This document shows, piece after piece, positions 1-33,493 of a stretch of 64,000 nt of DNA. Under the pieces are notes generated by a model. The model did not search any database. It was not told where the DNA came from and saw only the letters and a program-made list of their open reading frames with translations. The stretch is taken from sequence record PZ445427.1; one strand, written 5' to 3'. Each line of letters opens with the position of its first letter. Within the stretch, counting starts at the first letter, position 1. This DNA comes from a phage. Both the position numbers and the translations under genes were made by a program.

Positions 1-173
1 TCATCTTCACCACAGAAGCGACGGAAGCCAGCTTCAAAGTTAGGCAAGCTACATACTTCCTCTAGATCGTACTCATCCCACAAGGATTTCCCACTAGCAG
101 TATCAGTACGGAAAGCACGAACACCACTATCTACACTCAAACCTGCACCACTAACAACGATTAGTCTACGCAT
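1..173 (-). CDS. Sir2-like NAD-dependent deacetylase, N-terminal part (gene continues left of window)
   Basis: Minus-strand ATG at 173..171; translation MRRLIVVSGAGLSVDSGVRAFR... matches sirtuin GAGxSxxSGIxxFR NAD-binding motif; TAATG overlap with upstream gene. Confidence 0.5.
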   Translation of the reverse strand, partial: MRRLIVVSGAGLSVDSGVRAFRTDTASGKSLWDEYDLEEVCSLPNFEAGFRRFCGED

Positions 174-325
174 TATACGATTCCTTGCTTGAATCCTTCG
201 ATGATATTTTGGAGCAGAATTGCTTCTTCTGGGCGAACCTTCTCTTGCTTAATAAGTATATCCAAACCAGCAATACAGGTAGCTACTCCAGCATTATACC
301 CAGCATTCCACTGCTCCATGAGCAT
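173..325 (-). CDS. hypothetical small protein (50 aa, internal Met of track ORF 173..451)
   Basis: Track ORF 173..451 overlaps 336..539 in another frame; only the part after stop of 336..539 is likely coding. Confidence 0.25.
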   Translation of the reverse strand: MLMEQWNAGYNAGVATCIAGLDILIKQEKVRPEEAILLQNIIEGFKQGIV

Positions 326-928: not shown

Positions 929-2803
929 TTATTTAGCGCGAATGTCCTGATGTTTCACTCGACCCATAACCTCATGTTGTTTGCCTGGGTTAAATGGACG
1001 AGCACCTGGATTTCCAAGATATCCGCAAACTCGACGAGTTACCTCAAGAGTCTCAGGATCATGATTGCCACAAATTGGGCATTTGAAACCATCCTCAGAA
1101 GCTATAGTTTCACCCAAGAACCCACATTCCCCACAAGAGTCTACTGGAGTATTAATACCGAAGTAATGAACTTTACTTGCAGCATAGTTAATAACCCATT
1201 CCAGTGCATCAGGGAATCGTTTCATATCCGGTAATTCCACATAGGAAATGCACCCACCAGAAGCAATAGGAGTAAAGTTAGACTCATAATCAAACTTCAC
1301 ATTTGGAGCAACCTTACGTTCTACATCAAGGTGATGGGAATTAGTGTAATATCCTTTAGCCAGAATATCTTCATGCTCTGGGAAATACTCACGGTCTAGG
1401 CGACAGAAGCGATCACATAGAGATTCAGATGGTGTAGCATACAGACTATACCCTAATTGAGTCTCTTCCTTCTTCTGATCAGCACGATCACGCATGTATT
1501 GTAGCACACGTTGAACGAACTTGATACAAGACTCAGACATTGTATCTACATCTTTACCAAACATGAGTTGCAACATTTCGTGGCAGCCAATATATCCTAG
1601 GGATACAGAAGCACGCTTGTAGAAATGATCAAATACATATTCATCTGGCCCCAGACGTAATCCAAAGGCTCCTGACATATAGAGGATGGGCGCAGCTTTA
1701 GCTTGAATGTATTTTAAGCGATCAACCCTCCACTCCAATCCTTTTAACGCGGTATCCACACGCAGCTCAAGCAGATCGAAGAATAGATCAATATTTCCTT
1801 CCGCTTCGATAGCAATTCGAGGAAGGTTCACAGAAACAACACCTAAGTTATTACGGCCAGAAGTTTCACCATCTTCCGCAGCAGCTAGGAATGAACGACA
1901 GCCCATAGAGACTTTGTAGTCACCAGTAACTTCTACAACCTTATCATAACTGATATAGTCAGGATACATACGTTCAGCAGTACATTTCATAGCTAACTTC
2001 TTGATATCATAGTTAACATCACCAGGTTTCATGTTAACACCATCACGAAGTACAAATACCAGTTTAGGGAAGATAGCTGTACGTTTATTAATACCCAAAC
2101 CATCCATACGCACTTCTAAGATTGCTTTCTGTACAAGACGTGCTTCCCAAGAAGTTCCTAGACCAAAACCAAAGGTAATAAATGGACTCTGACCATTAGA
2201 GTTGAACATCGTATTGATCTCATACTCTAGACCCTGACAGGCATCGTAAACTTCCTTCTCAGTCATTTCCGTAGCCATTACAGATGCTTTAGCTTCATCC
2301 TTAGTCCAACGTTTTGCAAACGCATGATTCTTATCATAAGACTTACGAACATAAGGAGCCAATACTTCATCTAATCGGTCTACAGAAGTACCACCATATT
2401 GATGTGAACTAACCTGAGTGATAATCTGAGCTGTGATAGCAGCCGCAGTAGTAATAGAGTTTGGCGTACTGATTTCAGCATTACCAACCTTCATACCGTT
2501 TTTCAACATATCTTCCAAAGCAACCAGGCAACAGTTAGTCATACCTAACGCAGCGTAATCAGCATCATGGAAGTGAATATCACCAATCATGTGAGCATTT
2601 CGAATCTGGATTGGCATTTCTTCCAGAATCAGATATTTACTCAATTCCCCTGCAAGCATGTCCCTTTGTGTAGGGAAACGTTCTGAGGGCTTATTGGCAT
2701 TATTAAACAGCAGCTCTTCATCTGCTGAACCTTCGATAATTTCTTTGCAGTTTCGAATCAAGGACTGCATTCCTTTATACTTTAGTTCTTCATTGCGATT
2801 CAT
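929..2803 (-). CDS. nrdD: anaerobic ribonucleoside-triphosphate reductase (class III)
   Basis: 624 aa; C-terminal glycyl-radical motif RVCGYLG and CxxC...CxxC zinc site; AAGGAGG RBS. Confidence 0.9.
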   Translation of the reverse strand: MNRNEELKYKGMQSLIRNCKEIIEGSADEELLFNNANKPSERFPTQRDMLAGELSKYLILEEMPIQIRNAHMIGDIHFHDADYAALGMTNCCLVALEDMLKNGMKVGNAEISTPNSITTAAAITAQIITQVSSHQYGGTSVDRLDEVLAPYVRKSYDKNHAFAKRWTKDEAKASVMATEMTEKEVYDACQGLEYEINTMFNSNGQSPFITFGFGLGTSWEARLVQKAILEVRMDGLGINKRTAIFPKLVFVLRDGVNMKPGDVNYDIKKLAMKCTAERMYPDYISYDKVVEVTGDYKVSMGCRSFLAAAEDGETSGRNNLGVVSVNLPRIAIEAEGNIDLFFDLLELRVDTALKGLEWRVDRLKYIQAKAAPILYMSGAFGLRLGPDEYVFDHFYKRASVSLGYIGCHEMLQLMFGKDVDTMSESCIKFVQRVLQYMRDRADQKKEETQLGYSLYATPSESLCDRFCRLDREYFPEHEDILAKGYYTNSHHLDVERKVAPNVKFDYESNFTPIASGGCISYVELPDMKRFPDALEWVINYAASKVHYFGINTPVDSCGECGFLGETIASEDGFKCPICGNHDPETLEVTRRVCGYLGNPGARPFNPGKQHEVMGRVKHQDIRAK

Positions 2804-15427: not shown

Positions 15428-16286
15428 AGATTCATAAATTAGAGAACAGCGAGCCGATTACGCTGAGTGAGTTTAGTGATTCCTACTAGGATAGCTATTC
15501 CACTGAATAGAGTCGGTGAGTTGGAGACTAGTAAGTACTCTGAGAGAGGCTACGAGCTAACGCTTATTGCTATTGATAGGGAACTGAAAATCTGCGGAAA
15601 ACTCGGGAGCTGTCCCGAAATCTCGTAAACTCTTCTCTAGTTTATGTTAGTGGGGTGTCGAACTGACTTATGTGATAACACTGCCGTCCTAGTATAAACG
15701 GTAATATCAAACCGTAACTGGTGGAAGATGCAGGTTCGAATCCTGCGGTCGGAAAGAATCAGATAACTCGGGCTTATACCGGATAAGCATTCGCTGCTGG
15801 AGTACATACTATGACGGTTCAGGAGGTACGCCACCTGATCAGTATTAGGTTAGAATCGAAACAGCTAAACCACGAGGAAACCTGACGGCCTCAACCAAAC
15901 TCGGAACTCGGGATCACTGCCTAGTGTGTGCCCCGTTTAACCTGAGACTAGGCATCCAGCTTCGCATCGAAAATCGGAGGTGCGATTCTAACAGACCGCG
16001 TGAATATGAGAGTGGGAAACGCTGACATGAGAGATGTCACTAATGGTGCCCAATAGTACAGGTAATTCGCGATAATTCCTGTTGAGCGGCAGCAGTAGGC
16101 TGGGAGTCATGACCTAAGCCTAACCGAGTTCTTCACATACGGAGAACATAACCACAAAGTCACCCTGACTTAAACTGGAAGATATTGTCTGACGGAAGGG
16201 CTGCAGAGCTTAATCTGAGGGGGCTGACCCTACCTACCGTCGGGTATCTTTAAGAGCTTTTATAAGAGTTCTTAAAAATACCTAAA

Positions 16287-21693: not shown

Positions 21694-21701
21694 AATTTCA
21701 C

Positions 21702-21730: not shown

Positions 21731-21744
21731 ATATTCATAAATTT

Positions 21745-21838: not shown

Positions 21839-21843
21839 AATTT

Positions 21844-21921: not shown

Positions 21922-21938
21922 ATTAATTAGGAGACTAT

Positions 21939-22124
21939 ATGTCTAGATTCTACGAAATGAAGAAAGCATTAGAAGAATGTCGGTGTAAGGACTGTCATGG
22001 TGGTGGTAGGCAGGATGATGCAGAACCTGGGGATATTTTCTGTAGAGAATGGGAATGTCCTACATGTAAAGGTACTGGTATCAACCCTGAATATGCAATT
22101 TGTCTAGACATTGAGCGAGGCTAA
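21939..22124 (+). CDS. small zinc-ribbon-like protein (61 aa)
   Basis: AGGAGA RBS; CxxC...CxxC. Confidence 0.5.
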   Translation: MSRFYEMKKALEECRCKDCHGGGRQDDAEPGDIFCREWECPTCKGTGINPEYAICLDIERG

Positions 22125-22125
22125 G

Positions 22126-22464
22126 ATGGATATTTTTACTACTCCGGCAATAAACCTTTTAGGTGTTGGCTTGTTCCAAGCTACGGTGTATCGTACCGAT
22201 GATTCTACTGATGTGGTAACGTTCATCGTACCTGAGTTCTTCCTAGAAAAGTTCTTTGAAGAGTTTGAGCAGTTCCGTGAAGAACACAATGCTCATTCCG
22301 ATATGGAAGATCTAGCAGCTATGTTCCCTGCGGTTTACGGCTATATCTTTGAAGGTAATGGCCTAGATCTTAATAAATCTGAACTCGTTGAACTTAATTG
22401 GGGCATCAATTTTGAGGTTGGCTCTCCATTCCCTCGATATTTCCAGGGTTTAGAGATTCGCTAA
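22126..22464 (+). CDS. hypothetical protein
   Basis: ATG 22126 after previous stop; track start 22111 is TTG. Confidence 0.5.
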   Translation: MDIFTTPAINLLGVGLFQATVYRTDDSTDVVTFIVPEFFLEKFFEEFEQFREEHNAHSDMEDLAAMFPAVYGYIFEGNGLDLNKSELVELNWGINFEVGSPFPRYFQGLEIR

Positions 22465-22472
22465 GATTACAT

Positions 22473-22549
22473 GGGGGTGTAATCGAATTGGCATAGGTAC
22501 TGGACTTAAAATTCAGGTTTTGTGGGTTCGAATCCCACCACCCCTACCA
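22473..22549 (+). tRNA. tRNA with anticodon TAA (Leu-like, short variable loop)
   Basis: Acceptor gggggtg/cacccct, anticodon stem ctgga/ttcag loop cttaaaa, T-arm gtggg-ttcgaat-cccac, CCA. Confidence 0.5.
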
Positions 22550-22564
22550 AATTAAGGAAATAAA

Positions 22565-22686
22565 ATGAAAGCTATTAAGAAAGCACTACGTAAATTTATG
22601 TACTGTCGTTTCCATAGTATTAAGGCTTCAACTAATGGTACGACTTACGATCGCTATGATCCTAAGTTTGGCTTACATTCTAAATA
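22565..22686 (+). CDS. small hypothetical protein (40 aa)
   Basis: AAGGAAA RBS then ATG; below track cutoff. Confidence 0.3.
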
Positions 22687-22700
22687 ACTGGAGATAATAA

Positions 22701-22907
22701 ATGGCTAATCCTGAAATTACTGCACAGCGCTTTATGCTGAAAGGTATTATTGCTGAAGCAGGCATGACAGAAGAAGTTGCAGATTTTCAAAAGCAGTTCC
22801 TAAATATTCTCACTCAAGCCAAAGAGCTAGGAGAGAAAGAACATGGCGCGGCTATTATGGCAATCACATTGGTTGGGCTTGATCTGGCAGAAGAATCAGG
22901 AGTTTAA
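22701..22907 (+). CDS. hypothetical protein (68 aa)
   Basis: GGAGA RBS. Confidence 0.5.
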   Translation: MANPEITAQRFMLKGIIAEAGMTEEVADFQKQFLNILTQAKELGEKEHGAAIMAITLVGLDLAEESGV

Positions 22908-22937
22908 CTCCTCCAAGCAGAAATTTTAAAAATGTAC

Positions 22938-22967
22938 TTGCTTTTTACTTAAGATTTCTGCTATAAT
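22938..22967 (+). promoter_or_regulatory. T5-type early promoter
   Basis: ttgctt 22938..22943, 18-bp spacer, tataat 22962..22967. Confidence 0.55.
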
Positions 22968-22997
22968 AGTTATATAAATTGATGAAGGAGTTAACGA

Positions 22998-23273
22998 ATG
23001 TCAAAACGTGTTACTTCAACTGGTGTTGAAAGTGCTGTTTGTAAATCCTGGGGTGGCTGGGAAGGTGAGATTGAATGGCTTTATTTCTACGATGTAGAAC
23101 TTCTGCCGGAAGTCAAAGCTAAATGTGTGGAAGCTGGTATGGCTCCTGATGCAAAGGCTGATATCGAAATCACCATGACTAAGCTAGAAGGTCGTGTAAT
23201 TACGCTCAATGATGATTATGAAGAAGTGTTCGAGCTTCCATTCAAACTGAGTGTCACTCCTAGCTTCGAGTAA
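22998..23273 (+). CDS. hypothetical protein (91 aa)
   Basis: AAGGAG RBS. Confidence 0.55.
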   Translation: MSKRVTSTGVESAVCKSWGGWEGEIEWLYFYDVELLPEVKAKCVEAGMAPDAKADIEITMTKLEGRVITLNDDYEEVFELPFKLSVTPSFE

Positions 23274-23309
23274 CTGATATAGCACTGAGCAAGTTCTTTA
23301 AAATTTGAC

Positions 23310-23338
23310 TTGCTCAGTCCTTCAAAACTTGATATAAT
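23310..23338 (+). promoter_or_regulatory. T5-type early promoter
   Basis: ttgctc 23310..23315, 17 bp, tataat 23333..23338. Confidence 0.55.
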
Positions 23339-23403
23339 ATTTATCTAATTTGGAAACATATTTAAAAGTGTTTAAATGAGAATTTTTGAATACTTCTAAA
23401 TAT

Positions 23404-23491
23404 GGGCGTTTATTCCGTAAGTGGTAGCGGAGGGGATTGTAAATCCCTGGTCATTGCGACTCGAGTGGTTCGACTCCATTAACGCCCACCA
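23404..23491 (+). tRNA. tRNA-Tyr(GTA)
   Basis: Acceptor gggcgtt/aacgccc, anticodon loop ttgtaaa, long variable arm, T-loop ttcgact, CCA. Confidence 0.75.
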
Positions 23492-23508
23492 AATTAAAGG
23501 TAAAGGAT

Positions 23509-24000
23509 ATGTATATTGATCGGATAATTCAAGAAGCTGCAAATAGGGGTATTATACAGTTGGGTTCACCCGCTGATATAAATAAAGATCTAATATTAGA
23601 AAGCCTCACATTTGGTACAGCTAACTTTGGTCGCGATAGTAATCGTCGATATAGCTTGAAGTTATCTGCACTATCTTTTATCAAGTATAACAAAAGTATT
23701 GGAGAAAAATCCAGCTGTGGTTTTATTTACGCAATAACTAACCCAGCTTGGGATAACTATGTAAAAATTGGTATGTCTTCTGATCCTAAAACAAGATTAA
23801 GAAATTACCAAACCTATTCTCCTTTACGTGATTATAAGTTAATACATTGGTCATTCTGGTTTAATGCTAGAGAAGCGGAGAAAATGCTTCATAATAGCTT
23901 TCCTGAACGGCTTAACGAATGGGTAGTGTTAGACAGAGGTGTAGACGAAATACTTTCCGAGTTTAACAATTTATCCAATAAGCAATTTAAGTCCTGTTAG
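23509..24000 (+). CDS. GIY-YIG nuclease-like protein (T5orf172-type domain)
   Basis: CGFIYAITN ... YVKIGMSSD ... RLRNY arrangement typical of GIY-YIG/T5orf172 domain; sits inside tRNA cluster; stop overlaps tRNA-Glu. Confidence 0.5.
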   Translation: MYIDRIIQEAANRGIIQLGSPADINKDLILESLTFGTANFGRDSNRRYSLKLSALSFIKYNKSIGEKSSCGFIYAITNPAWDNYVKIGMSSDPKTRLRNYQTYSPLRDYKLIHWSFWFNAREAEKMLHNSFPERLNEWVVLDRGVDEILSEFNNLSNKQFKSC

Positions 24001-24067
24001 ACAAACTGGTAAAGTCACTACCCTTTCAAGGTAGGATTTGCGGGTTCGATCCCCGCACAGGACGCCA
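23991..24067 (+). tRNA. tRNA-Glu(TTC)
   Basis: Acceptor gtcctgt/acaggac, anticodon stem ctacc/ggtag loop ctttcaa, T-arm gcggg-ttcgatc-cccgc, CCA. Confidence 0.7.
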
Positions 24068-24075
24068 ATTTCTGC

Positions 24076-24152
24076 ATTCCTAGAGTGTTACTGGACAGCA
24101 TGTCGGTCTCCAAAACCGTACGGTCTAGGTTCGAGTCCTAGTAGGTTTGCCA
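24076..24152 (+). tRNA. tRNA-Trp(CCA), acceptor stem imperfect
   Basis: Anticodon loop ctccaaa, T-arm ctagg-ttcgagt-cctag, CCA; 5' acceptor pairs only 5 of 7. Confidence 0.4.
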
Positions 24153-24158
24153 ATATTT

Positions 24159-24233
24159 GCACCTTTAGCTGAGATGGATTAGCGCTTGCCTGAAGAGCTT
24201 GAGAGGTTCGTTCAATTCGAACAGGGTGCACCA
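24159..24233 (+). tRNA. tRNA-Phe(GAA), weak anticodon stem
   Basis: Acceptor gcacctt/agggtgc, anticodon loop ctgaaga, T-arm gttcg-ttcaatt-cgaac, CCA. Confidence 0.45.
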
Positions 24234-24252
24234 ATTAATCAATATAAGGCTT

Positions 24253-24633
24253 ATGGAAACAAAAACGTGTAATAAGTGTGGAAATACATTTCCCTTGAGT
24301 ACGGACTACTTCTTTAAAAGTGGTAAGCAAGTCTCAGGAAAACAAAAATGGAAACCTATGTGCAAACAATGCGAAAGTATATCTCGTATTGAATACTATA
24401 ATAATACAATTGCCGAGGTTTTTCCTGACTTACATTGTGCTATTTGTGGGTATAACAAGTGTCCACAGGCGATTGATTTCCATCATTTAGAGCAGGATGA
24501 TAAAGAGTTTAATATTAGTGAAGCTAGACGGGGTACGTTTAACAAAGAAAAACTAATAGAAGAGCTTGAGAAATGTGTACCTTTATGCTGTAGGTGTCAC
24601 AGAGAATATCATGCTGGAGTTATTGAGCTTTAA
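24253..24633 (+). CDS. HNH endonuclease-like protein
   Basis: CAICGY...HHL...N...CCRCHREYH HNH/zinc motif; start ATG 24253 (track start 24199 overlaps tRNA). Confidence 0.65.
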   Translation: METKTCNKCGNTFPLSTDYFFKSGKQVSGKQKWKPMCKQCESISRIEYYNNTIAEVFPDLHCAICGYNKCPQAIDFHHLEQDDKEFNISEARRGTFNKEKLIEELEKCVPLCCRCHREYHAGVIEL

Positions 24634-24647
24634 ACTGAAAAATGTAG

Positions 24648-24676
24648 TTGCTTAAATCCTTAAAGTTCTGTATAAT
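24648..24676 (+). promoter_or_regulatory. T5-type early promoter
   Basis: ttgctt 24648..24653, 17 bp, tataat 24671..24676. Confidence 0.6.
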
Positions 24677-24704
24677 TATTATATAAATTGAACTGGAGAA
24701 CTAG

Positions 24705-24893
24705 ATGAAAGCACCTAAACCGAAATTAGTTAAGTTCGACTGCTGTGACACTGAAATCTTATTTACTAAGTTTGGTGAATTTAAGATGTGTGAATGTGGA
24801 ACATGTGGTTATGATCATGGTGATGGATATTATTGCAGAACCCTCGGGCCTTCTGAACTAATCCACTTCTCATGGCCGGAAAGTAAAGAATAA
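24705..24893 (+). CDS. small Cys-rich protein (62 aa)
   Basis: GGAGAA RBS; CCxxC...CxCGxC. Confidence 0.5.
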   Translation: MKAPKPKLVKFDCCDTEILFTKFGEFKMCECGTCGYDHGDGYYCRTLGPSELIHFSWPESKE

Positions 24894-24895
24894 TA

Positions 24896-24971
24896 CGACC
24901 GTTGGCTGAATGGCTTAGGCGGAGGCCTGCAAAACCTCCTTATGTGAGTTCGAATCTCATGCGGTCGTCCA
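24896..24971 (+). tRNA. tRNA-Cys(GCA)
   Basis: Acceptor cgaccgt/gcggtcg, anticodon region ctgcaaa, discriminator U, T-loop ttcgaat, CCA. Confidence 0.6.
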
Positions 24972-24978
24972 AATTTTA

Positions 24979-25061
24979 GGGTCGTTAGCCAAGCGGTTTG
25001 GCGGTGGACTGTTAATCCATGTCGAAAGACAACGTAGGTTCGAATCCTACACGGCCCGCCA
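24979..25061 (+). tRNA. tRNA-Asn(GTT) with unusually long variable arm
   Basis: Acceptor gggtcgt/acggccc, D stem gcca/tggc, anticodon stem gtgga/tccat loop ctgttaa, 13-nt variable arm (gtc-gaaa-gac), T-arm gtagg-ttcgaat-cctac, CCA. Confidence 0.6.
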
Positions 25062-25164
25062 TATTCTGTGTAGAGTTAAGTAAACCGGTAGCCAACCAGC
25101 TATCATTGCTGATATCGAATTCAGTCACAGATACCATTTTTCATTAACAACTGAGGAAATAGAT

Positions 25165-25350
25165 ATGACAACTCGTGCAATTGCTCGACTAGAAGCTGAT
25201 CGTGATAGTCTGATTAATAATATTAAGGTTTGGGATCAAGAAATTGAAAACCAAAAACTGACATTAATTCAAGATATGCAACAACAGAATGCCCGTCGTG
25301 AAGCTCTAAAAGAGGTTGAGGAAGCTATCGAAAAACTCAAAACTGAGTAA
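25165..25350 (+). CDS. hypothetical coiled-coil protein (61 aa)
   Basis: GAGGAAA RBS. Confidence 0.5.
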   Translation: MTTRAIARLEADRDSLINNIKVWDQEIENQKLTLIQDMQQQNARREALKEVEEAIEKLKTE

Positions 25351-25359
25351 ATAAATTAT

Positions 25360-25436
25360 GCGATCGGGGCTGGCTTGGTAATGGTACTCCCCTGTCACGG
25401 GAGAGAATGTGGGTTCGAATCCCATCGGTCGCGCCA
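25360..25436 (+). tRNA. tRNA-Asp(GTC)
   Basis: Acceptor gcgatcg/cggtcgc, anticodon stem ctccc/gggag loop ctgtcac, T-loop ttcgaat, CCA. Confidence 0.75.
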
Positions 25437-25442
25437 AATAAT

Positions 25443-25518
25443 ACATCCATAGCTCAATGGTTAGAGCTACCGCCTCTTAAGCGGAGGGTTCTAGGTTCAA
25501 GTCCTAGTGGGTGTACCA
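25443..25518 (+). tRNA. tRNA-Lys(CTT)
   Basis: Acceptor acatcca/tgggtgt, D stem gctc/gagc, anticodon loop ctcttaa, T-arm ctagg-ttcaagt-cctag, CCA. Confidence 0.65.
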
Positions 25519-25519
25519 A

Positions 25520-25731
25520 ACATCAGAGCAGCGTGATGTACTGCAAAGACCCAAAGTCCGGGGTGGACTTCTTGATTCAAAGGAGCAGGCATTAATTATC
25601 ATTCTAGCGTGGTGGAGAGGGGACACCAGCTTGCCGAGGGTAGAAGCTCGTTCGATTCGAGTGAAAGAATGGTTCTCGTAAATCCGCACAAGTGATAGTA
25701 GGTTCAAGTCCTACCTAGATTGACTCATTAT
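25520..25731 (+). other. unresolved tRNA-like region (two T-arm-like hairpins without canonical acceptor stems)
   Basis: gctcg-ttcgatt-cgagt at 25646..25662 and gtagg-ttcaagt-cctac at 25698..25714; no 7-bp acceptor partner found by eye. Confidence 0.3.
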
Positions 25732-25805
25732 GCGTTCGTAGTTAAAAGGTATAATTTTTGGTTGCCAACCAGAAGTTGAGGGTTCGATTCCCTCCGACCG
25801 CACCA
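25732..25805 (+). tRNA. tRNA-Gly(GCC)
   Basis: Acceptor gcgttcg/cgaccgc (1 mismatch), anticodon stem tttgg/ccaga loop ttgccaa, T-arm gaggg-ttcgatt-ccctc, CCA. Confidence 0.65.
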
Positions 25806-26053
25806 AATTTAGGTTTCTGCTTCCTAGAGAACTGACTCCTAGATAAACAAGGCGATGAGTTTCCGGCCGGTTCTAGTCGCTGAAAATCCTCCCGACCAGG
25901 TAGGTGTAAGTAAACGAAAGTTTACTTATTAAGTAAGTCCGACACATCGGCGGGTGTGTTCTAGTACTTAAAGAAGGTCTCGCAAACTTTCTCGCTAGCA
26001 TGAGTTGATAGCTCGGTGACTTACCTAATAAGTAAATTTATTAAAAAATGTAG

Positions 26054-26082
26054 TTGCTATTTAGCTTAATTCTCTGTATAAT
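26054..26082 (+). promoter_or_regulatory. T5-type early promoter
   Basis: ttgcta 26054..26059, 17 bp, tataat 26077..26082. Confidence 0.6.
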
Positions 26083-26114
26083 ATATTTTATAAAGTGAGT
26101 TAACAAAGAATATT

Positions 26115-26192
26115 CTCCGTGTAGCTCAGTTTGGCCAGAGCGTTTCGTTTGGGGCGATAGGGTCGGGGGTTCAAATCCTCCCACGGAGACCA
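26115..26192 (+). tRNA. tRNA-Pro(TGG)
   Basis: Acceptor ctccgtg/cacggag, anticodon loop tttgggg (G37), variable gggtc, T-loop ttcaaat, CCA. Confidence 0.7.
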
Positions 26193-26198
26193 AACAAT

Positions 26199-26276
26199 TG
26201 CGGGTTAGATCTCTGGTAGAGATCGCTAGTCTCATAAGCTAGAAAGAGGTAGGTTCGATTCCTACACCCGCTTCCA
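26199..26276 (+). tRNA. tRNA-Met/Ile(CAT)
   Basis: Acceptor tgcgggt/acccgct with 1:72 mismatch, anticodon stem ctagt/gctag loop ctcataa, T-arm gtagg-ttcgatt-cctac, CCA. Confidence 0.6.
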
Positions 26277-26297
26277 ATTTAATAGAAGGATTTCGAA

Positions 26298-26462
26298 ATG
26301 AAATTATTTCGTTTAAAAGTAAGTGATCTACGTTCTAGCAAAGATCGTAAGAAGTATCCACTAGCCCATTACGGTAAAGATGAAAATGAAGTGATGGCGG
26401 AATTTGGTATTAATCATCCTTACTTGAAAGTTCACTCTATTAAAGAAGTATACATGTATTAA
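26298..26462 (+). CDS. small hypothetical protein (54 aa)
   Basis: AAGGA RBS; between tRNAs; below track cutoff. Confidence 0.35.
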   Translation: MKLFRLKVSDLRSSKDRKKYPLAHYGKDENEVMAEFGINHPYLKVHSIKEVYMY

Positions 26463-26464
26463 AT

Positions 26465-26542
26465 TGACCGTTAACTCAACTGGATAAGAGTACCGAGCTT
26501 TTACCTCGTAGGTTCTGGGTTCGAATCCCAGACGGTCAACCA
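26465..26542 (+). tRNA. tRNA-Lys(TTT)
   Basis: Acceptor tgaccgt/acggtca, anticodon loop cttttac, T-arm ctggg-ttcgaat-cccag, CCA. Confidence 0.7.
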
Positions 26543-26559
26543 ATTTAAAGGAATTTGTT

Positions 26560-26877
26560 ATGAATATTAACAAAGTTCTAGGAACAATATCAGAAATGTC
26601 TGGTAGAGCTGGAAAACGCTTTACTGAATTATGTATTAAAAATCAAAAAGTACCAGAACATCAATGTCATTATTGTCGAGACTGTGAACAATACCATGAA
26701 ATGTGTGTGGTTGAAGATTGGGTCTGGGATCAGATAAGAAAAGAACAATCCAAAGATATTGTTCTATGTTTTACTTGTATGGAACGACGTTTAGGACGTA
26801 AAATTACTCTTAAAGATCTTAAACATGTTCCCTGTAACGCTCCTTACTTCATTGGTTTTAGAATGGAGAGATTTTGA
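26560..26877 (+). CDS. Cys-rich zinc-ribbon-like protein (105 aa)
   Basis: AAAGGAA RBS; CHYCRDC and CFTC motifs. Confidence 0.55.
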   Translation: MNINKVLGTISEMSGRAGKRFTELCIKNQKVPEHQCHYCRDCEQYHEMCVVEDWVWDQIRKEQSKDIVLCFTCMERRLGRKITLKDLKHVPCNAPYFIGFRMERF

Positions 26878-27010
26878 TGATAATCTGGTTTTACTTAATG
26901 AAACAAAAAGTCAAGCAGTACAACGTATTTTCTGCTGATTTTACTATTGGAATGTTCTTAGCGGGATTATGTGAGTTTCTGTTTGAAGCCTACATCATAG
27001 GAAGTCTTTT

Positions 27011-27084
27011 GCTCGGTTAGTTTAATGGGAGAACCCCGTCTTTACACGGCGGTTGCGATAGTTCGATTCTATCACCGAGTACCA
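27011..27084 (+). tRNA. tRNA-Val(TAC)
   Basis: Acceptor gctcggt/accgagt, anticodon stem ccgtc/ggcgg loop tttacac, T-arm gatag-ttcgatt-ctatc, CCA. Confidence 0.7.
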
Positions 27085-27103
27085 ATTAACTCAAAATAAG
27101 GAA

Positions 27104-27463
27104 TTGCAAATGCAATTATCAAGCAAGGTTCAAGGCTATTTCGGGCATGTAACAATGGAGTTCGCTATCTCTAAAGGTTGGGACTTCGAACAAGATCTAG
27201 CTGAATTCTACAAAGATATTGATCTGAATGTACCGTACATAGGACTCTCTACTGGTCAAGAGATCACAGAAGGCGATGTGTTCAAGGCAAGTCAAGGTGA
27301 GGTAACACCTAGTTTTGCCGAGTTCTGGTTAGGTATTACTTTGAAAGAAGATGCACCGGATGGTGGTGTGGTTATGCAGAGTATGCACTCTGGAAGCTCT
27401 GACTACCTTTTCGTTAGTGACGTTAAGGAAATACAAGAAATCTGCAAAAATGTACTTGCTTGA
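27104..27463 (+). CDS. hypothetical protein (119 aa)
   Basis: AAGGAA RBS. Confidence 0.55.
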   Translation: MQMQLSSKVQGYFGHVTMEFAISKGWDFEQDLAEFYKDIDLNVPYIGLSTGQEITEGDVFKASQGEVTPSFAEFWLGITLKEDAPDGGVVMQSMHSGSSDYLFVSDVKEIQEICKNVLA

Positions 27464-27484
27464 TGCTTAATTTCTTGTTATAAT
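27456..27484 (+). promoter_or_regulatory. T5-type early promoter
   Basis: ttgctt 27456..27461, 17 bp, tataat 27479..27484. Confidence 0.6.
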
Positions 27485-27727
27485 ATTTATATAAATTGAT
27501 GGGGAGAAATCCTCATCAAAGTTCACTAAGGTATTAGCTCGACCTAGGACTGGCTGCCAAAAAGCACGATCCCTACGACTTGGGAGAAGTTCTAGATTAG
27601 TCCACTAGATTCAGTGGCAACTGAATAGTGTATCGGGTTTGTGAAGAGCGGTTATCCTCTACTGGCTAATGTCTGAGGGTAATACGCACACCGAGCTAAT
27701 AGCCTTAGTAAACTAGAAGGAATATCT

Positions 27728-27991
27728 ATGTTTGATCTTAAAGATATGGCTAAGAAACTAATGTCGCAACGTTATCAACAAAGAACCCTCCATAAACGAG
27801 TTTCCGATATGAAGAAACGTTGCAATAATGCTAAGTATTATAATAGTCTTAATAAACTATCTGATGTAGATCTTGCTAAAACTGAAGCAATATATAATCA
27901 CTTAGTAGTAGAATCTGATATAGTGAATAAAGATATTGCTAGGCTAGAAGCTCAGATTGTAGCAACTGTTCTCGATATGTATAGAGAATAA
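27728..27991 (+). CDS. hypothetical protein (87 aa)
   Basis: AGAAGGAA RBS; preceded by about 240-nt ORF-free leader. Confidence 0.5.
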   Translation: MFDLKDMAKKLMSQRYQQRTLHKRVSDMKKRCNNAKYYNSLNKLSDVDLAKTEAIYNHLVVESDIVNKDIARLEAQIVATVLDMYRE

Positions 27992-28000
27992 ATAAATTTT

Positions 28001-28079
28001 GGGGAATGGGTCTGCATGGAGTGGACACCTCGCTTGCACCGAGGACATCAGAACGGTTCGATTCCGTTATTCTCCACCA
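28001..28079 (+). tRNA. tRNA-Ala(TGC)
   Basis: Acceptor ggggaat/attctcc with G3-U70, anticodon stem cctcg/cgagg loop cttgcac, T-arm aacgg-ttcgatt-ccgtt, CCA. Confidence 0.65.
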
Positions 28080-28085
28080 AAATTC

Positions 28086-28161
28086 GGGGTCATAGGTTAT
28101 TTGGTTAAACTTACTGCCTTGCAAGCAGTGGAACTCAGTTCAATTCTGAGTGACTCCACCA
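28086..28161 (+). tRNA. tRNA-Ala(TGC) second copy (divergent sequence)
   Basis: Acceptor ggggtca/tgactcc with G3-U70, anticodon stem actgc/gcagt loop cttgcaa, T-arm ctcag-ttcaatt-ctgag, CCA. Confidence 0.6.
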
Positions 28162-28180
28162 AACAAATTAAGGAAATAAT

Positions 28181-28399
28181 ATGGTATTCTTAGCAGCCTC
28201 TGTAGTTCTTGCAGCTTTAGCACTAGCTATCTATTTTAGAACTATTAAAGATTTAGCTAAAGAAAAGAAAACTTTCTTTACTGATTATTCTTGGGGCGCT
28301 CCATATACCGTCCGCTTTATCAGCTTAGAAGCTATGCTGATAATGGTATTCAGTGGTATAGGTTCCGTTGTTACAGGGTTACTATTTATTTCTAACTAA
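28181..28399 (+). CDS. small membrane protein (72 aa)
   Basis: AAGGAAA RBS; two hydrophobic segments. Confidence 0.5.
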   Translation: MVFLAASVVLAALALAIYFRTIKDLAKEKKTFFTDYSWGAPYTVRFISLEAMLIMVFSGIGSVVTGLLFISN

Positions 28400-28406
28400 A
28401 TAAAAT

Positions 28407-28487
28407 GGGGATGTGGCGAAATTGGCAGACGCGCTAGATTTAGGCTCTAGTCTTCGGGTGTGGGTTCGAGTCCCTCCATCCCTACCA
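28407..28487 (+). tRNA. tRNA-Leu(TAG)
   Basis: Acceptor ggggatg/catccct, anticodon stem ctaga/tctag loop tttaggc, long variable arm, T-loop ttcgagt, CCA. Confidence 0.7.
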
Positions 28488-28661
28488 AACATTGGATTAA
28501 CTCATGATGAAAACTCCTATAACTGATATCTGGTTAGCTGTTAATACATTAACTAAAGAGTATGTGTTTATAGAGTATGGTCAGAGGTATGACCAAAAGA
28601 TGTATAATCTCATACTTCCAGTATCCGCTAATGAAGTTTATGATTTAATCCTGAGATCTAC

Positions 28662-28752
28662 GGAAGAGCAAATCGATTAGGTGACGAAAACCGCTTGGAA
28701 AGTGGCTGACTGGTAAAACGGCTTGAGAGTTCGAATCTCTCTTCTTCCGCCA
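28662..28752 (+). tRNA. tRNA-Ser(GGA)
   Basis: Acceptor ggaagag/ttcttcc, anticodon loop ttggaaa, long variable arm, T-arm gagag-ttcgaat-ctctc, CCA; 91 nt. Confidence 0.55.
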
Positions 28753-28774
28753 AACAACTTACTAGGAAACTAAT

Positions 28775-29131
28775 ATGTCAGAAGTGACAATCTATAATGA
28801 AATGCTTGGCAAAATTTTTACTAGTGTATGCCAAGACCAAGATACTCTTATCTTCATTTGTACTGATGGTAAGAACTATAAGTTTTATCATGAGCAGGAC
28901 TGCTGTGAAGATGTTCATATAGATGATATTATTGGTGATTTACATGACCTTTTAGGTTATCCAATCATAGAAGCAGAGGAAGTAATCACACACGCTACAG
29001 AAGATTGGGATTCAGTAACCCATACATGGTATAAGTTTGCCACAGCTAAAGGCTGTGTAACCGTTAAATGGCATGGTTCTAGTAATGGTTATTACTCTGA
29101 ATCTGTAAACTTTGTAATATACGAACAATAG
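28775..29131 (+). CDS. hypothetical protein (118 aa)
   Basis: AGGAAA RBS. Confidence 0.55.
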   Translation: MSEVTIYNEMLGKIFTSVCQDQDTLIFICTDGKNYKFYHEQDCCEDVHIDDIIGDLHDLLGYPIIEAEEVITHATEDWDSVTHTWYKFATAKGCVTVKWHGSSNGYYSESVNFVIYEQ

Positions 29132-29219
29132 AAGATAGGACGTAGTGGTACGTAACCGGTCTTGAAAACCGGCCCGCTGTAGTGATATGGTGATGGTTCG
29201 ACTCCATTATCTTCTGCCA
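29130..29219 (+). tRNA. tRNA-Ser(TGA)
   Basis: Acceptor agaagat/atcttct perfect, anticodon stem ccggt/accgg loop cttgaaa, long variable arm, T-loop ttcgact, CCA. Confidence 0.75.
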
Positions 29220-29356
29220 AATCTTGAAGTATGCCGGAATCGGTAGACGGGGCTTCCTAAAGGGCGTAAGGGGAACATCCACTCCTCATAAGATACCCGA
29301 AAACGAGGCTGAGATAAATGGTCTATCTCGTGAAGGTTCAAGTCCTTCTGCTTCTT
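29220..29356 (+). other. unresolved tRNA-like structured region
   Basis: Hairpin gagata-aatggtc-tatctc followed by T-arm-like gaagg-ttcaagt-ccttc; no canonical acceptor stem found. Confidence 0.3.
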
Positions 29357-29577
29357 GATATTCAATGGCTCAAAGAGTAACGGTGCACCTTTCTAGAGAA
29401 TTTCCTGGGCGAGAATCCAGGTGTAATCAACTAGTTGTTAGTGTGATGAGTTTCGGAGAGCCGCCACAATTGAAAATTCGTACTCGTCTTGAGCTTCGTG
29501 CAATAGAAGATAACTTGATTAGTATTCTAGAAAATGCTATTTGAGGATGGTTTCGCTAACCCTGCGAGTTTTCAATT

Positions 29578-29654
29578 GTGGCTATATCATAATTGGTTAA
29601 TGATCCTGATTGTGAATCAGGCCTATGTGGATTCGAGTTCCACTAGCCACCCCA
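29578..29654 (+). tRNA. tRNA-His(GTG)
   Basis: Acceptor gtggcta/tagccac, anticodon stem cctga/tcagg loop ttgtgaa, T-arm gtgga-ttcgagt-tccac, CCA. Confidence 0.75.
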
Positions 29655-29660
29655 AATATT

Positions 29661-29735
29661 GCGTCCTTATTTCAACGGAAAGAATGTAAAGCTACGAACT
29701 TTACGATCGGGGTTCGATTCCCTGAGGATGCACCA
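29661..29735 (+). tRNA. tRNA-Arg(ACG)
   Basis: Acceptor gcgtcct/aggatgc, anticodon stem taaag/cttta loop ctacgaa, T-arm cgggg-ttcgatt-ccctg, CCA. Confidence 0.7.
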
Positions 29736-29759
29736 ATTAACTTAAACAGGAAAATAATA

Positions 29760-29960
29760 ATGGCTGATTTCTGTAAAGAATGCTCTATCGATATGTGGGG
29801 CAAAGATACACAAGATCTTTCTGGTCTTATCACTGAAGCCGAGGTTAAAGAGGGCTACGGTGCTGTAGTAATCTGCGAAGGTTGTGGTATTATCCGTGTT
29901 GATCATGAAGGCAAACGCCTTGAAGAACCTGAGCCAATCGCAACGGTTCCTGTAGAGTAA
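29760..29960 (+). CDS. small zinc-ribbon-like protein (66 aa)
   Basis: ATG 29760 after AGGAAAA; CxxC...CxxC; track ORF 29625.. overlaps tRNAs and is rejected as start. Confidence 0.5.
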   Translation: MADFCKECSIDMWGKDTQDLSGLITEAEVKEGYGAVVICEGCGIIRVDHEGKRLEEPEPIATVPVE

Positions 29961-29968
29961 AGAATTAT

Positions 29969-30044
29969 TGGGATGTAGATCAATTGGCAGATCGTCGGCC
30001 TCTGACTCCGAAGGTTCCACGTTCGATCCGTGGCATCCCAGCCA
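29969..30044 (+). tRNA. tRNA-Gln(CTG)
   Basis: U1-A72 acceptor tgggatg/catccca, anticodon loop ctctgac, T-arm ccacg-ttcgatc-cgtgg, 3' end CCCAGCCA. Confidence 0.7.
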
Positions 30045-30050
30045 AACAAT

Positions 30051-30126
30051 TGGAGAGTAGTGTAACGGTTAGCACAACGGCCTTTGACTCCGTTAATGGT
30101 AGGTTCGATTCCTCCTTCTCCAGCCA
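30051..30126 (+). tRNA. tRNA-Gln(TTG)
   Basis: U1-A72 acceptor tggagag/ttctcca, anticodon loop ctttgac, T-loop ttcgatt, CCA. Confidence 0.65.
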
Positions 30127-30132
30127 ATTTAT

Positions 30133-30207
30133 GCGTGATTAGTTCAGTGGCTAGAATAACTGGCTTCCAACCAGTAGACACGAGTTCGACTCTCGTATCC
30201 CGCACCA
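30133..30207 (+). tRNA. tRNA-Gly(TCC)
   Basis: Acceptor gcgtgat/atcccgc (1 mismatch), anticodon stem actgg/ccagt loop cttccaa, T-arm acgag-ttcgact-ctcgt, CCA. Confidence 0.7.
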
Positions 30208-30223
30208 AATATAAGGAAACGTT

Positions 30224-30466
30224 ATGGACGTTTTTGAGTTTCGTAATAAAAGCCCCAATAGGCGCGTTTTGATTATTGGTGAAACATATCGAGCTTATGA
30301 GCAAGAAGATGGTTCGGTTTTACTAAACGATGAAAAGCAAGGTTATAGCTTTTATCCAGAAGAAACGTATGAAGAATTTCGTACCAAGTTTCTCTTACCA
30401 GACTGGCTAGCAGTAGCCGAGCAACGAGAATCCGAAGATGGCAGAAAACCTAAAATTAAAGGTTGA
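30224..30466 (+). CDS. hypothetical protein (80 aa)
   Basis: AAGGAAA RBS. Confidence 0.55.
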   Translation: MDVFEFRNKSPNRRVLIIGETYRAYEQEDGSVLLNDEKQGYSFYPEETYEEFRTKFLLPDWLAVAEQRESEDGRKPKIKG

Positions 30467-30612
30467 CAAACAAAAGAAATACGTTGAGGTTGAATTAGGC
30501 GAAGAACGCTTAAAGCTATCCTTCGAGTTTCTTCAGCAGTTGGCGATGACAGTAATGTCTGATAAGTCTCCTGTATTTGAGAAAGAAATCCCGTTGAAAT
30601 GACGGGTTTATT

Positions 30613-30687
30613 GCTCCTAAAGCATTGCTGGCGATGCAGTTGCCTTGTAAGCATCTGAACCGGGTTCGATTCCTGGTGGGAGCACCA
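30613..30687 (+). tRNA. tRNA-Thr(TGT)
   Basis: Acceptor gctccta/tgggagc, D stem gcat/atgc, anticodon loop cttgtaa, T-arm ccggg-ttcgatt-cctgg, CCA. Confidence 0.7.
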
Positions 30688-30702
30688 AATTTAAAAATTC
30701 AT

Positions 30703-30731
30703 TTGCCTTCTCTCTTATTTCTTGTTATAAT
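30703..30731 (+). promoter_or_regulatory. T5-type early promoter
   Basis: ttgcct 30703..30708, 17 bp, tataat 30726..30731. Confidence 0.55.
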
Positions 30732-30761
30732 ATTTATATAAATTAATGAGAGGGAAACCAA

Positions 30762-31055
30762 ATGAAACGTTATCTTTCTGTCGTATTCCAAACGGGTGGT
30801 CAACGCTACACTTACGAATTTCCTGAGTCTTGGAAAATCAAAGAGGGTGATCAAGTTGTTGTGTTAACACCTCGTGAAGGCTTCAAAGTAGTAACGGTTA
30901 AACAAGTATTTCCAAAAGATCACGAACCATCTAAGTCTCTTAACTATAAGATGATTCATGGTCTGGTACGAAAAGTACCTAGAACAGAAGTCGAAGTAGA
31001 TAAAACTGGAGAAGCTAAATACCAGTATACCTCTTACTTAGACGAAATGATGTAA
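30762..31055 (+). CDS. hypothetical protein (97 aa)
   Basis: GAGAGGGAAA RBS. Confidence 0.55.
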   Translation: MKRYLSVVFQTGGQRYTYEFPESWKIKEGDQVVVLTPREGFKVVTVKQVFPKDHEPSKSLNYKMIHGLVRKVPRTEVEVDKTGEAKYQYTSYLDEMM

Positions 31056-31056
31056 T

Positions 31057-31132
31057 GCTCCGATAGTTCAAACGGTTAGAACAGGCGACCGATAATCGTC
31101 AAATCTTGGTTCGATCCCAAGTCGGAGTACCA
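31057..31132 (+). tRNA. tRNA-Ile(GAT)
   Basis: Acceptor gctccga/tcggagt, anticodon stem ggcga/tcgtc loop ccgataa, T-arm cttgg-ttcgatc-ccaag, CCA. Confidence 0.6.
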
Positions 31133-31138
31133 AATTAT

Positions 31139-31211
31139 AGTTAGTTGGCAGAGTGGTTATGCACCTCCTTCATACGGAGTGACTACAGTGGTTCAAATCC
31201 ACTACTAACTA
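31139..31211 (+). tRNA. tRNA-Met/Ile(CAT), CCA not encoded
   Basis: Acceptor agttagt/actaact perfect, anticodon loop ttcatac, T-arm agtgg-ttcaaat-ccact. Confidence 0.6.
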
Positions 31212-31583
31212 CTAAACAGAGGATCAGGTCATTGTACCAGATCCTGCTGAGAAGAGAGTCCACATTCTATAAATGGCCGGGCGTGACAGCAGGAAGTAGA
31301 CTGCAACTCCATGCTATCCAGGAGTATAAATGTAGAAGCTAGGACTTTAGATAGCCATTGTCTTAGCGTGAGCAATCACGTAGTTGCAACAGACCTGGAA
31401 GATCGCAACGTTAAAATCAAAGTTCCAGTGCTTATTTATCTAATCGAGACCATCAATCTCACCGGAATGCTAGCACCCCAACAGTAGCTAGTGATTAGAT
31501 AATAAGCAAGCCTGCCTTCCAGTTTTTATCTTGCTTCTGGGTTAACAAAAAGCTGAGCCAAATTCTAACATCAGGGAGATCTA

Positions 31584-31952
31584 ATGAAAGCATATCAAAG
31601 TCTTAAGTCTGGCGTAATTAACATTGTTCATAACAATCAGATCATTCAACTATATTCTAAAGATGGTGAACTTAAACAGAAAGTTCTAGTCGAAGATCTA
31701 GAAGGTATCACACCTCACTTTGACCCTGAGGCCTTTCGCATTGTAGATGTGGAAGTGGTTCCTCAAGTCGAGGGTGGTCAGCACCTAAATGTCAATGTGT
31801 TAAGCCGTGATCAGCTTTTGGATGCACAGAAACATCCTGAAAAATATCCTCAGTTGACCATCCGTGTCTCTGGCTATGCTGTTCGATTTAACGCATTGAC
31901 GCGTGAACAACAGAACGACGTTATTAGTCGTACATTTACTCAGGCGATATAA
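31584..31952 (+). CDS. grcA: autonomous glycyl radical cofactor (GrcA/YfiD-like)
   Basis: 122 aa; [11 protein letters not shown] and [32 protein letters not shown] closely match the GrcA / pyruvate formate-lyase C-terminal glycyl-radical domain. Confidence 0.8.
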
Positions 31953-32033
31953 TGGGGTTTGGATACGATTTCTCCCAGCTACGCAAGGTAGTCGAGCAAA
32001 CTCCATTTATCTCCCAAGTTTTAGGAGAAATGT

Positions 32034-32333
32034 GTGGATCGAGCATTAAGACGCCATCACCGGCAACGTGTGAAAAACAACCGAAAGAAGTATTGGACAG
32101 TATTCCCTCATGAAGAAAGTCCTAAGCGGTTAGGCATTATTACTACCACGCCTTGCATCTGTTCTTGTTGGATGTGTGGGAATCCTCGCAAATACTATAA
32201 GAATAGTAAAGCAGGTATGAAAATCTCGGAGATTAAAAAGATGGATGCAATGATTATGGGCACCACCTTTACAGGTGGTATCTCTGATGAATTCGACGGT
32301 TTTGTAACTCAAGATATTGTTGAAATTATCTAA
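32034..32333 (+). CDS. hypothetical protein (start uncertain)
   Basis: Track ORF; overlaps an alternative 53-aa ORF at 31952..32113; no clear RBS. Confidence 0.3.
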   Translation: MDRALRRHHRQRVKNNRKKYWTVFPHEESPKRLGIITTTPCICSCWMCGNPRKYYKNSKAGMKISEIKKMDAMIMGTTFTGGISDEFDGFVTQDIVEII

Positions 32334-32342
32334 TTAATAATA

Positions 32343-32378
32343 AACCCCAGCTATTGAATAAGTAGTCTGGGGTTTTCT
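32343..32378 (+). terminator. rho-independent terminator
   Basis: aaccccag ... ctggggtt hairpin then TTTCTT. Confidence 0.6.
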
Positions 32379-32397
32379 TGTATGTAGGATTTTCGAA

Positions 32398-32995: not shown

Positions 32996-33493
32996 ATGGA
33001 AACCTGGAAAGACATAACAGGTTTTGAGGGTAAATACCAGATATCTAATAAGGGGAATGTCTCTAGTTATTTATCTGGTAAAATTCTCAAACCCCAAGTA
33101 AATAGACAAGGGTATCTTGTCATCAACCTATATTATGAAGTAGGTAAAGCTAGAAAATTTAGGATACACAGACTTGTAGCTGAGCACTTTATACCTAATC
33201 CAGATAATAAACCCTTCGTTAATCATCTGGATGGTGATAAGTCAAATAATGACGAGGATAACCTAGAATGGAGCACCTCGGAAGAGAATAATAGACATGC
33301 CCGTGAAAATGGTTTAGCTAATTGGGCGAAAGGGGAACAGCATGGTAGGTGTAAACTATCTGATGCAGATATCTTTTGGATAAGAAGTCATTATCAGCCA
33401 AGAAACCGAGAATTTGGTCAAGCTGCTTTAGCTAGGATGTTCGGTGTAAGTCAACCTCACATATCGTATATAATTAACGGGCATAAAAGGTAA
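32996..33493 (+). CDS. HNH homing endonuclease (NUMOD4 + HNH)
   Basis: GFEGKYQISNKGNV NUMOD4 motif and HRLVAEHFIPNP...NHLDGDKSNN...NLEW HNH motif; C-terminal HTH-like tail. Confidence 0.85.
   Translation: METWKDITGFEGKYQISNKGNVSSYLSGKILKPQVNRQGYLVINLYYEVGKARKFRIHRLVAEHFIPNPDNKPFVNHLDGDKSNNDEDNLEWSTSEENNRHARENGLANWAKGEQHGRCKLSDADIFWIRSHYQPRNREFGQAALARMFGVSQPHISYIINGHKR

Follow-up and report, generated by a model that had tools for sequence, protein, structure and literature searches.

The window analysed here is a stretch of 64,000 nucleotides of phage DNA (PZ445427.1), and a short gene at 31584..31952 is the subject of this report. By its database matches, the window is from a T5-like phage of the Demerecviridae, of the Epseptimavirus type. 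A megablast search with the locus found 450 phage records with 80-99% identity, and the related records that were retrieved were all Demerecviridae. The window encodes class Ia and class III ribonucleotide reductases (RNRs), a PhoH homologue and a Sir2-like fragment, and it has 29 tRNA genes clustered at 16287-31212. The Sir2-like fragment (3..248, minus strand) is the N-terminal part of an NAD-dependent deacylase with the GAGxS motif, which is cut by the window edge and is so annotated in phage beppo. In the tRNA searches, a borderline tRNA-like match at 15683..15754 (plus strand) was found by Rfam only, with 29.3 bits against a gathering score of 29, and is absent from the ARAGORN calls. Conversely, tRNAs for Tyr, one Ala and His (23404..23491, 28001..28079 and 29578..29654, plus strand) were called by ARAGORN only and are absent from the Rfam gathering-score list. 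Degenerate tRNAs or tRNA-like molecules of the kind annotated in T5 may underlie these discordant calls. The gene of interest and its surroundings contain the following features.

30703..30731, plus strand: sigma-70 promoter-like site TTGCCT-17-TATAAT with TG, whose surroundings are 94% identical to the annotated T5 early promoter P11
30762..31055, plus strand: T5.058-like ORF, upstream member of the unit of the GrcA-like gene
31057..31132, plus strand: tRNA-Ile, upstream in the same unit
31139..31212, plus strand: tRNA-Met, upstream in the same unit
31574..31578, plus strand: Shine-Dalgarno sequence GGGAG, 5 nt 5' of the ATG of the GrcA-like gene
31584..31952, plus strand: GrcA/Y06I-family gene with ATG start and TAA stop, 122 aa; orthologous to T5.056, homologous to T4 vs.6/Y06I
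31584..31766, plus strand: N-terminal half (aa 1-61), diverged GrcA/Y06I N-terminal region
31767..31949, plus strand: glycyl-radical domain (aa 62-122), from Pfam, PDB, blastp and fold matches
31872..31874, plus strand: GGC codon of Gly97, the predicted radical glycine, within RVSGYAV (aa 94-100)
32034..32333, plus strand: 99-aa ORF in the position of T5.055, last gene of the unit, containing CICSCWMC
32342..32379, plus strand: rho-independent terminator with a 9-bp stem (AAACCCCAG/CTGGGGTTT) followed by a T-tract; the stem is shared with the annotated T5 terminator after T5.055

The P11-like site is likely the start of the transcription unit that contains the GrcA-like gene, and this gene is most likely transcribed early, together with the small upstream ORF, tRNA-Ile, tRNA-Met and the T5.055-like ORF, since the promoter and terminator signals are homologous to those of T5. 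The terminator hairpin has a folding energy of -19.7 kcal/mol (z -5.8); it was missed by the automatic terminator scan because its loop is longer than 8 nt, and it was located using the T5 annotation and folding. In phage T5 itself, the orthologue T5.056 (NC_005859), which is annotated as a 'putative acetyltransferase-related protein' with a match to IPR001150, has the same setting: it lies 3' of tRNA-Ile/tRNA-Met and 5' of T5.055, in a unit bounded by P11 and the terminator. A Tequintavirus orthologue is about 90% identical in protein. The two loci differ in that tRNA-Met abuts T5.056 in T5, whereas an unrelated spacer of 371 nt (31213..31583) separates tRNA-Met from the GrcA-like gene in the window. 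This spacer has no similarity to its counterpart in Tequintavirus genomes, where the tRNA is either directly next to the gene or there is a 64-aa ORF, and only the final 26-40 nt before the ATG are conserved between them. Rfam and relaxed ARAGORN searches of the 371-nt spacer found no RNA, and a convincing ORF is also absent from it. The tRNA region of T5 carries several annotated 'stable RNAs of unknown function'.

Several small ORFs surround the gene. A 53-aa ORF (31952..32113, plus strand) overlaps the stop codon of the GrcA-like gene (TAATG) and also the 99-aa ORF at 32034..32333; it is annotated in phage SIA3lw and has no Pfam family. No Pfam family was found for the 99-aa ORF either, and its CICSCWMC motif makes a small zinc-binding protein possible. 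About 1 kb downstream of the unit, an HNH homing endonuclease (NUMOD4 and HNH_3; 32996..33493, plus strand) is encoded, which is typical for the mobile-element-rich early region of T5-like phages. Except for DUF7295 and this endonuclease, Pfam searches of the flanking small ORFs found no families.

The product of the gene is a phage protein of the GrcA (YfiD)/Y06I family of autonomous glycyl-radical cofactors, as judged from several searches. First, the 122-aa protein contains three motifs of the GrcA/PFL type (PFL, pyruvate formate-lyase) at aa 63-73, 94-103 and 106-119, and the heptapeptide RVSGYAV is exact at aa 94-100. Second, the Pfam family Gly_radical (PF01228) matches aa 62-103 with 66.3 bits (E 4.1e-18; gathering score 22.2 bits). 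Third, in a sequence search of the PDB, the closest solved structure is 6owr, E. coli YfiD/GrcA (E 2.2e-29 over aa 50-121), and the PFL structures 1h16/1cm5 align with aa 61-121 (PFL 698-758) in 61 of 61 columns without a gap (E 1.6e-26). Gly97 of the phage protein aligns with Gly102 of E. coli GrcA and Gly734 of PFL. When 20 phage and bacterial members were aligned, 36 columns were invariant, and these include the whole conserved block with aa 106-119. The T5-like protein retains all those residues of the radical loop and the flanking helices which do not vary among functional family members. The first-pass annotation had described a 122-aa protein with the hallmark C-terminal domain of GrcA/PFL and its radical glycine, and this description holds, as both the glycine and the flanking motif are conserved in the alignment to E. 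coli GrcA and the PFL C-terminus. The protein also stands alone, being encoded by an ORF of 122 codons with its own Shine-Dalgarno sequence and stop codon, and an adjacent pfl-like ORF is absent.

Among the NCBIfam models, the top matches of the protein are three GrcA models. Its score against the equivalog model TIGR04365 (spare_glycyl, GrcA) is 118.3 bits, which is below the cutoff of 170, because the N-terminal half is strongly diverged and only aa 54-121 are aligned. We therefore file the protein as a member of the phage Y06I-type branch and not as an equivalog of bacterial GrcA. Two other identities were considered and rejected. A complete PFL or 2-ketobutyrate formate-lyase can be dismissed for a protein of 122 aa, as against about 760 for the enzyme, without the ten-stranded catalytic barrel or Cys418/Cys419, and the PFL model TIGR01255 (744 positions) is matched only at positions 683-743, with 84 bits against a cutoff of 994. 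Since the barrel and both cysteines are absent, the protein cannot be a formate acetyltransferase, and such labels in GenBank are misnomers. A class III RNR subunit can be dismissed as well, as blastp comparisons with phage and E. coli NrdD were insignificant and the NCBIfam matches include no NrdD or NrdG family.

For the N-terminal half, profile comparisons (hhalign) of the T5-like sequences with those of the phage Y06I type gave a probability of 95.4% (E 1.9e-8), and the phage Y06I type in turn matched the N half of bacterial GrcA with a probability of 99.2% (E 3e-19). The direct comparison of T5-like and bacterial GrcA N halves by hhalign was not significant (18.9%), and thus the T5-like N half is homologous to that of bacterial GrcA only transitively, with the phage-type sequences as a bridge. 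By these comparisons, it belongs to the GrcA/Y06I N-terminal region but has diverged strongly. In the 20-sequence alignment it is the most diverged of the family and has a 12-residue insertion of its own. In an AlphaFold2 model built with 98 homologues (mean pLDDT 77.5), aa 2-36 are predicted to form a beta meander of four strands (pLDDT about 85), after which come the helix, the Gly hairpin and the second helix of the radical domain. In Foldseek searches, the modelled C-terminal half superposes on YfiD and PFL, and also on many other glycyl-radical enzymes with an rmsd of about 1.2 A over 42 residues. According to this model, the phage N half is possibly folded. NMR shows the N half of YfiD to be disordered, although binding to cleaved PFL and efficient activation depend on it (PMC8683613). 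Because of this importance for binding and activation, the affinity of the T5-like protein for its target could differ.

Homologues of the gene are widespread. A tblastn search of 50,697 phage records found a homologue in 1584 of them, including about 440 T5-like records with at least 90% identity and a large group of T4-like phages with about 50% identity across all 122 residues. Jumbo phages, among them RaK2 and fHe-Yen9, and phages of Aeromonas are also represented, and homologues from Vibrio phages were found by protein search in addition. Among the matches listed, the hosts are Escherichia, Salmonella, Klebsiella, Shigella, Enterobacter, Aeromonas, Yersinia and Citrobacter, and almost all carriers are phages of PFL-bearing Enterobacterales, Aeromonas and Vibrio. 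The protein of the window is 100% identical in the Salmonella phages beppo, Stitch and STG2.

The selection on the gene was analysed with six T5-like orthologues (the window, T5_ev219, SHSML-45, EC142, Spc35 and SIA3lw), and the frame of 122 codons is intact in all six. The dN/dS values were 0.05-0.18 for nearly all pairs and above 0.2 for none. For the N half they were 0.07-0.20, and for the C half 0-0.11, except for one near-identical pair with a value of 0.28 that is based on two substitutions. These ratios indicate that both halves are under purifying selection, which excludes a decaying pfl fragment. It could still be argued that the gene is a decaying or non-expressed passenger derived from a host pfl-type gene, as the region around the locus is variable, with many small ORFs, tRNAs and homing endonucleases, and the sequence immediately upstream differs between genera. 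However, the intact frame in 6 of 6 orthologues, the conservation among the roughly 440 T5-like records and dN/dS values far below 1 all speak against it, as do the good Shine-Dalgarno sequence, the conserved promoter and terminator, and a phage-type N half that is common to T4-like and jumbo phages. We consider such a passenger extremely improbable.

The origin of the radical domain in T5-like phages appears to be old. At the nucleotide level, its identity to E. coli grcA, pflB and tdcE is 70-73% in the window gene, and at third codon positions the identity is just 45-50%, by which a recent capture of the T5-like gene from the host is ruled out. In contrast, T4 vs.6 has an identity of 95.7% to E. 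coli grcA in its C-terminal 186 nt (third positions: 95%), and these are joined to an N half of the phage type. This combination indicates that T4 vs.6 is a mosaic produced by recent recombination with host grcA in the T4 lineage.

The same domain bears on the question of which host enzyme would be served. Over 62 residues of the radical domain (blastp), the phage protein shares 52 with E. coli TdcE, 49 with GrcA, 47 with PflB and 47 with T4 Y06I. TdcE is thus the closest, and the tail after the glycine differs from that of TdcE at one position only, which explains the label '2-ketobutyrate formate-lyase' in several GenBank records and means that TdcE may be a target, or a further one. It could be proposed that the protein is tuned to TdcE, or equally to TdcE and PflB, rather than being specific for PflB. 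That TdcE can replace PFL also favours this proposal, as far as can be taken from the entry of Sawers et al. 1998 in the references of PMC12338860. However, the advantage of TdcE amounts to a few residues in a very conserved domain, the phage protein has KHPEKYPQ as in GrcA where TdcE has EHPEKYPN, and the third-position identity, which is similarly low for all the host genes, gives no sign of a recent derivation from tdcE. Moreover, with about 80% identity between TdcE and PflB, a spare part may not discriminate between them. A protein tuned in this manner is therefore unlikely in our opinion.

The window also contains a gene for another glycyl-radical protein, and its position and description are as follows.

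929..2803, minus strand: nrdD, class III RNR of 624 aa without ATP-cone (NF006732, 837.6 bits)

The first-pass annotation had placed nrdD at these coordinates, and the match to the anaerobic RNR model establishes it there on the minus strand; the plus-strand translation of 929..2803 is full of stop codons. The alignment of the phage NrdD begins at residue 113 of E. coli NrdD and at profile position 88 of 712, so that the N-terminal ATP-cone is absent, and conservation between the two proteins is high in the C-terminal radical region. It had also been stated that no NrdG activase is visible in the window, and the same was found beyond it. Searches by tblastn with E. coli NrdG and PflA as queries (E up to 10) found no homologue in the window, the complete genome of the Tequintavirus T5_ev219 or the 49 kb of beppo outside the window, and the matches were only noise with E above 0.1. 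The CxxxCxxC motif was also looked for in six frames, and no protein of activase size with this motif was found in T5_ev219. Neither activase is annotated in T5_ev219 or in the 49-kb part of beppo, where an ORF of at least 80 aa with CxxxCxxC is also absent. In the six frames of the window, CxxxCxxC occurs as five chance matches, none of them in an NrdG- or PflA-like protein. NrdG genes are present in T4-like phages, in 293 Vibrio phages and in phages of Enterococcus and Clostridium. As the T5-like phages have no activase, both of their glycyl-radical proteins must rely on NrdG and PflA of the host. Judging from the two protein sequences, this reliance fits the conservation of the NrdD C-terminus and the exact RVSGYAV. 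This heptapeptide is the minimal substrate peptide of the PFL activase.

It had been speculated that the GrcA-like protein might rescue a damaged NrdD, that is, act as a spare part for phage or host NrdD after oxygen cleavage. For this, one can point to the presence of both genes in one genome, to the absence of a phage NrdG, and to the fact that all glycyl-radical enzymes suffer the same oxygen cleavage, for which spare parts of other enzymes have been speculated (PMC8683613). However, the evidence from sequence, fold and genome organization is against such a link. The best E values of blastp against the C-termini of phage and E. coli NrdD were 28 and 67, which means no similarity, and the protein has the RVSGYAV loop and lacks both the NrdD motif RVCGYLGNP and the preceding Cys4 zinc motif. 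No NrdD structure is among the best 50 fold-search matches, which are YfiD, PFL and PFL-like enzymes. In addition, 29 kb separate the two genes, which are on opposite strands and belong to different transcription units. Their distributions in phages differ as well: phages of Enterococcus, Clostridium and the like, which have NrdG, are not among the ten commonest organism names for GrcA homologues, and neither are the Vibrio phages, 293 of which have NrdG. The proposed link to class III RNR thus found no support, and we regard a role in NrdD repair as very improbable.

For the function of the protein, the known systems are more informative. E. coli YfiD and T4 Y06I are the two PFL spare parts that have been validated experimentally (PMC8683613; PMC13450708). 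The PFL-activating enzyme (PFL-AE) activates each of them, and either one can then reconstitute the catalytic centre of PFL after cleavage by oxygen (Wagner et al. 2001, via PMC8683613); the Y06I work is Wagner et al. 2001 BBRC 285:456, cited in PMC8683613. The T5-like protein is similar to T4 Vs.6/Y06I in several ways. Both are stand-alone phage proteins of about 120 aa that align over the full length with 51% identity (blastp, E 4e-36), both start with MKAYQ and have the phage-type N half, and the block at aa 106-119 is identical. Both genes are also in the early region of a large virulent enterobacterial phage. They differ in other respects. First, the C-terminal domain of T4 is nearly that of E. 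coli GrcA (59 of 62 aa), whereas that of the T5-like protein is old and equidistant from the host genes. Second, T4 encodes NrdG, but the T5-like genomes encode no activase. Third, the biochemical tests were made with Y06I. Compared with E. coli GrcA, the phage protein is of the same size class, its C-terminal domain has 74% identity (aa 51-122, E 2e-29) and an equally placed radical glycine, and the presumed activase (PflA) and target (cleaved PFL) would be the same; the N halves, however, have no directly detectable similarity, and a beta meander is predicted for the phage protein where YfiD is disordered. With PflB (1h16, 2pfl) and TdcE, the phage protein aligns over 61 residues without a gap and has the same fold, but it consists of a radical domain and a short N half only.

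With these comparisons, the GrcA/YfiD-like identity given in the first-pass annotation is retained, and the rescue of host PFL, one of the two roles it had offered, appears as the best-supported function on the precedent of T4 Y06I. Our main explanation, which we hold to be probably correct, is that the gene encodes an early-expressed spare part that repairs oxygen-cleaved host PFL (PflB and/or TdcE). The GrcA-like protein would be made early in infection from the P11-type promoter, and the radical SAM enzyme PflA of the host would remove a hydrogen atom from Gly97 within the RVSGYAV loop. Once activated, the C-terminal domain (aa 62-122) would insert into host PFL that has been cut at Gly734 by oxygen, with the diverged N half aiding in docking, and the PFL paralogue TdcE may be a second target of insertion. 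By this, the conversion of pyruvate to acetyl-CoA and formate would be restored, and the fermentative supply of ATP and acetyl-CoA would be sustained in the microaerobic infected cell. T5-type phages destroy the host DNA early, so that the stress-induced grcA of the host would no longer be inducible, and this may be a plausible reason for the phage to have its own copy. Of this scheme, the analysis shows the gene with its domain, motifs, homology to validated proteins, conservation, selection and transcription signals as well as the lack of a phage activase, whereas PflA as the activase, the enzyme that is targeted and the benefit to physiology are inferred.

An opposite effect on the host can also be imagined. 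Host-mimicking inhibitors are often carried by phages, and the protein, with an exact PflA substrate peptide and a diverged, possibly folded N half that could alter its behaviour, might serve as a decoy or modulator which titrates host PflA or occupies PFL and thereby shuts down or redirects pyruvate metabolism. However, a decoy would not require the entire domain intact, and in the phage protein the invariant loop and helix residues are all kept and the dN/dS of the C half is very low. Moreover, the homologous Y06I of T4 restores PFL activity in vitro (PMC8683613). A decoy is thus quite improbable. It is improbable, too, that the T5-like member has become a broader donor of the radical domain, for PflD, YbiW, TdcE or uncleaved inactive PFL, and would reprogram fermentation. 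This reading is suggested because the N half is diverged, under selection and possibly folded, the tail is TdcE-like, and two glycyl-radical proteins are encoded without an activase.

The kind of gene described here is already known, as phage spare parts for PFL have been known since T4 Y06I (2001) and T5.056 has been annotated for two decades. In GenBank, identical proteins of beppo and bux are already named 'glycyl radical cofactor', and the orthologue of T5_ev219 is annotated as 'putative autonomous glycyl radical cofactor GrcA'. The novelty that the first-pass annotation implied was therefore overstated. In the literature on T5-like phages or Tequintavirus combined with pyruvate formate-lyase or glycyl radical, we found no paper that studies the T5-like member, and in a paper on T5-like proteogenomics we found nothing on the GrcA-like gene. 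The naming in the databases is inconsistent. The same protein goes by at least eight product names in phage records, such as 'ribonucleotide reductase subunit', 'pyruvate formate-lyase', 'formate acetyltransferase' and '2-ketobutyrate formate-lyase', and the feature annotated at the homologous match in phage T2 is called 'tail sheath monomer'. The discordant product names are annotation errors worth correcting.

In conclusion, this gene remains of interest because two glycyl-radical proteins are present without an activase, because its product has a diverged N half and a tail like that of TdcE, and because the databases name it inconsistently. In particular, since the two glycyl-radical proteins are encoded without an activase, requirements for host genes can be predicted for infection under anaerobic or microaerobic conditions, and these predictions would be relevant to the use of such phages in the gut.
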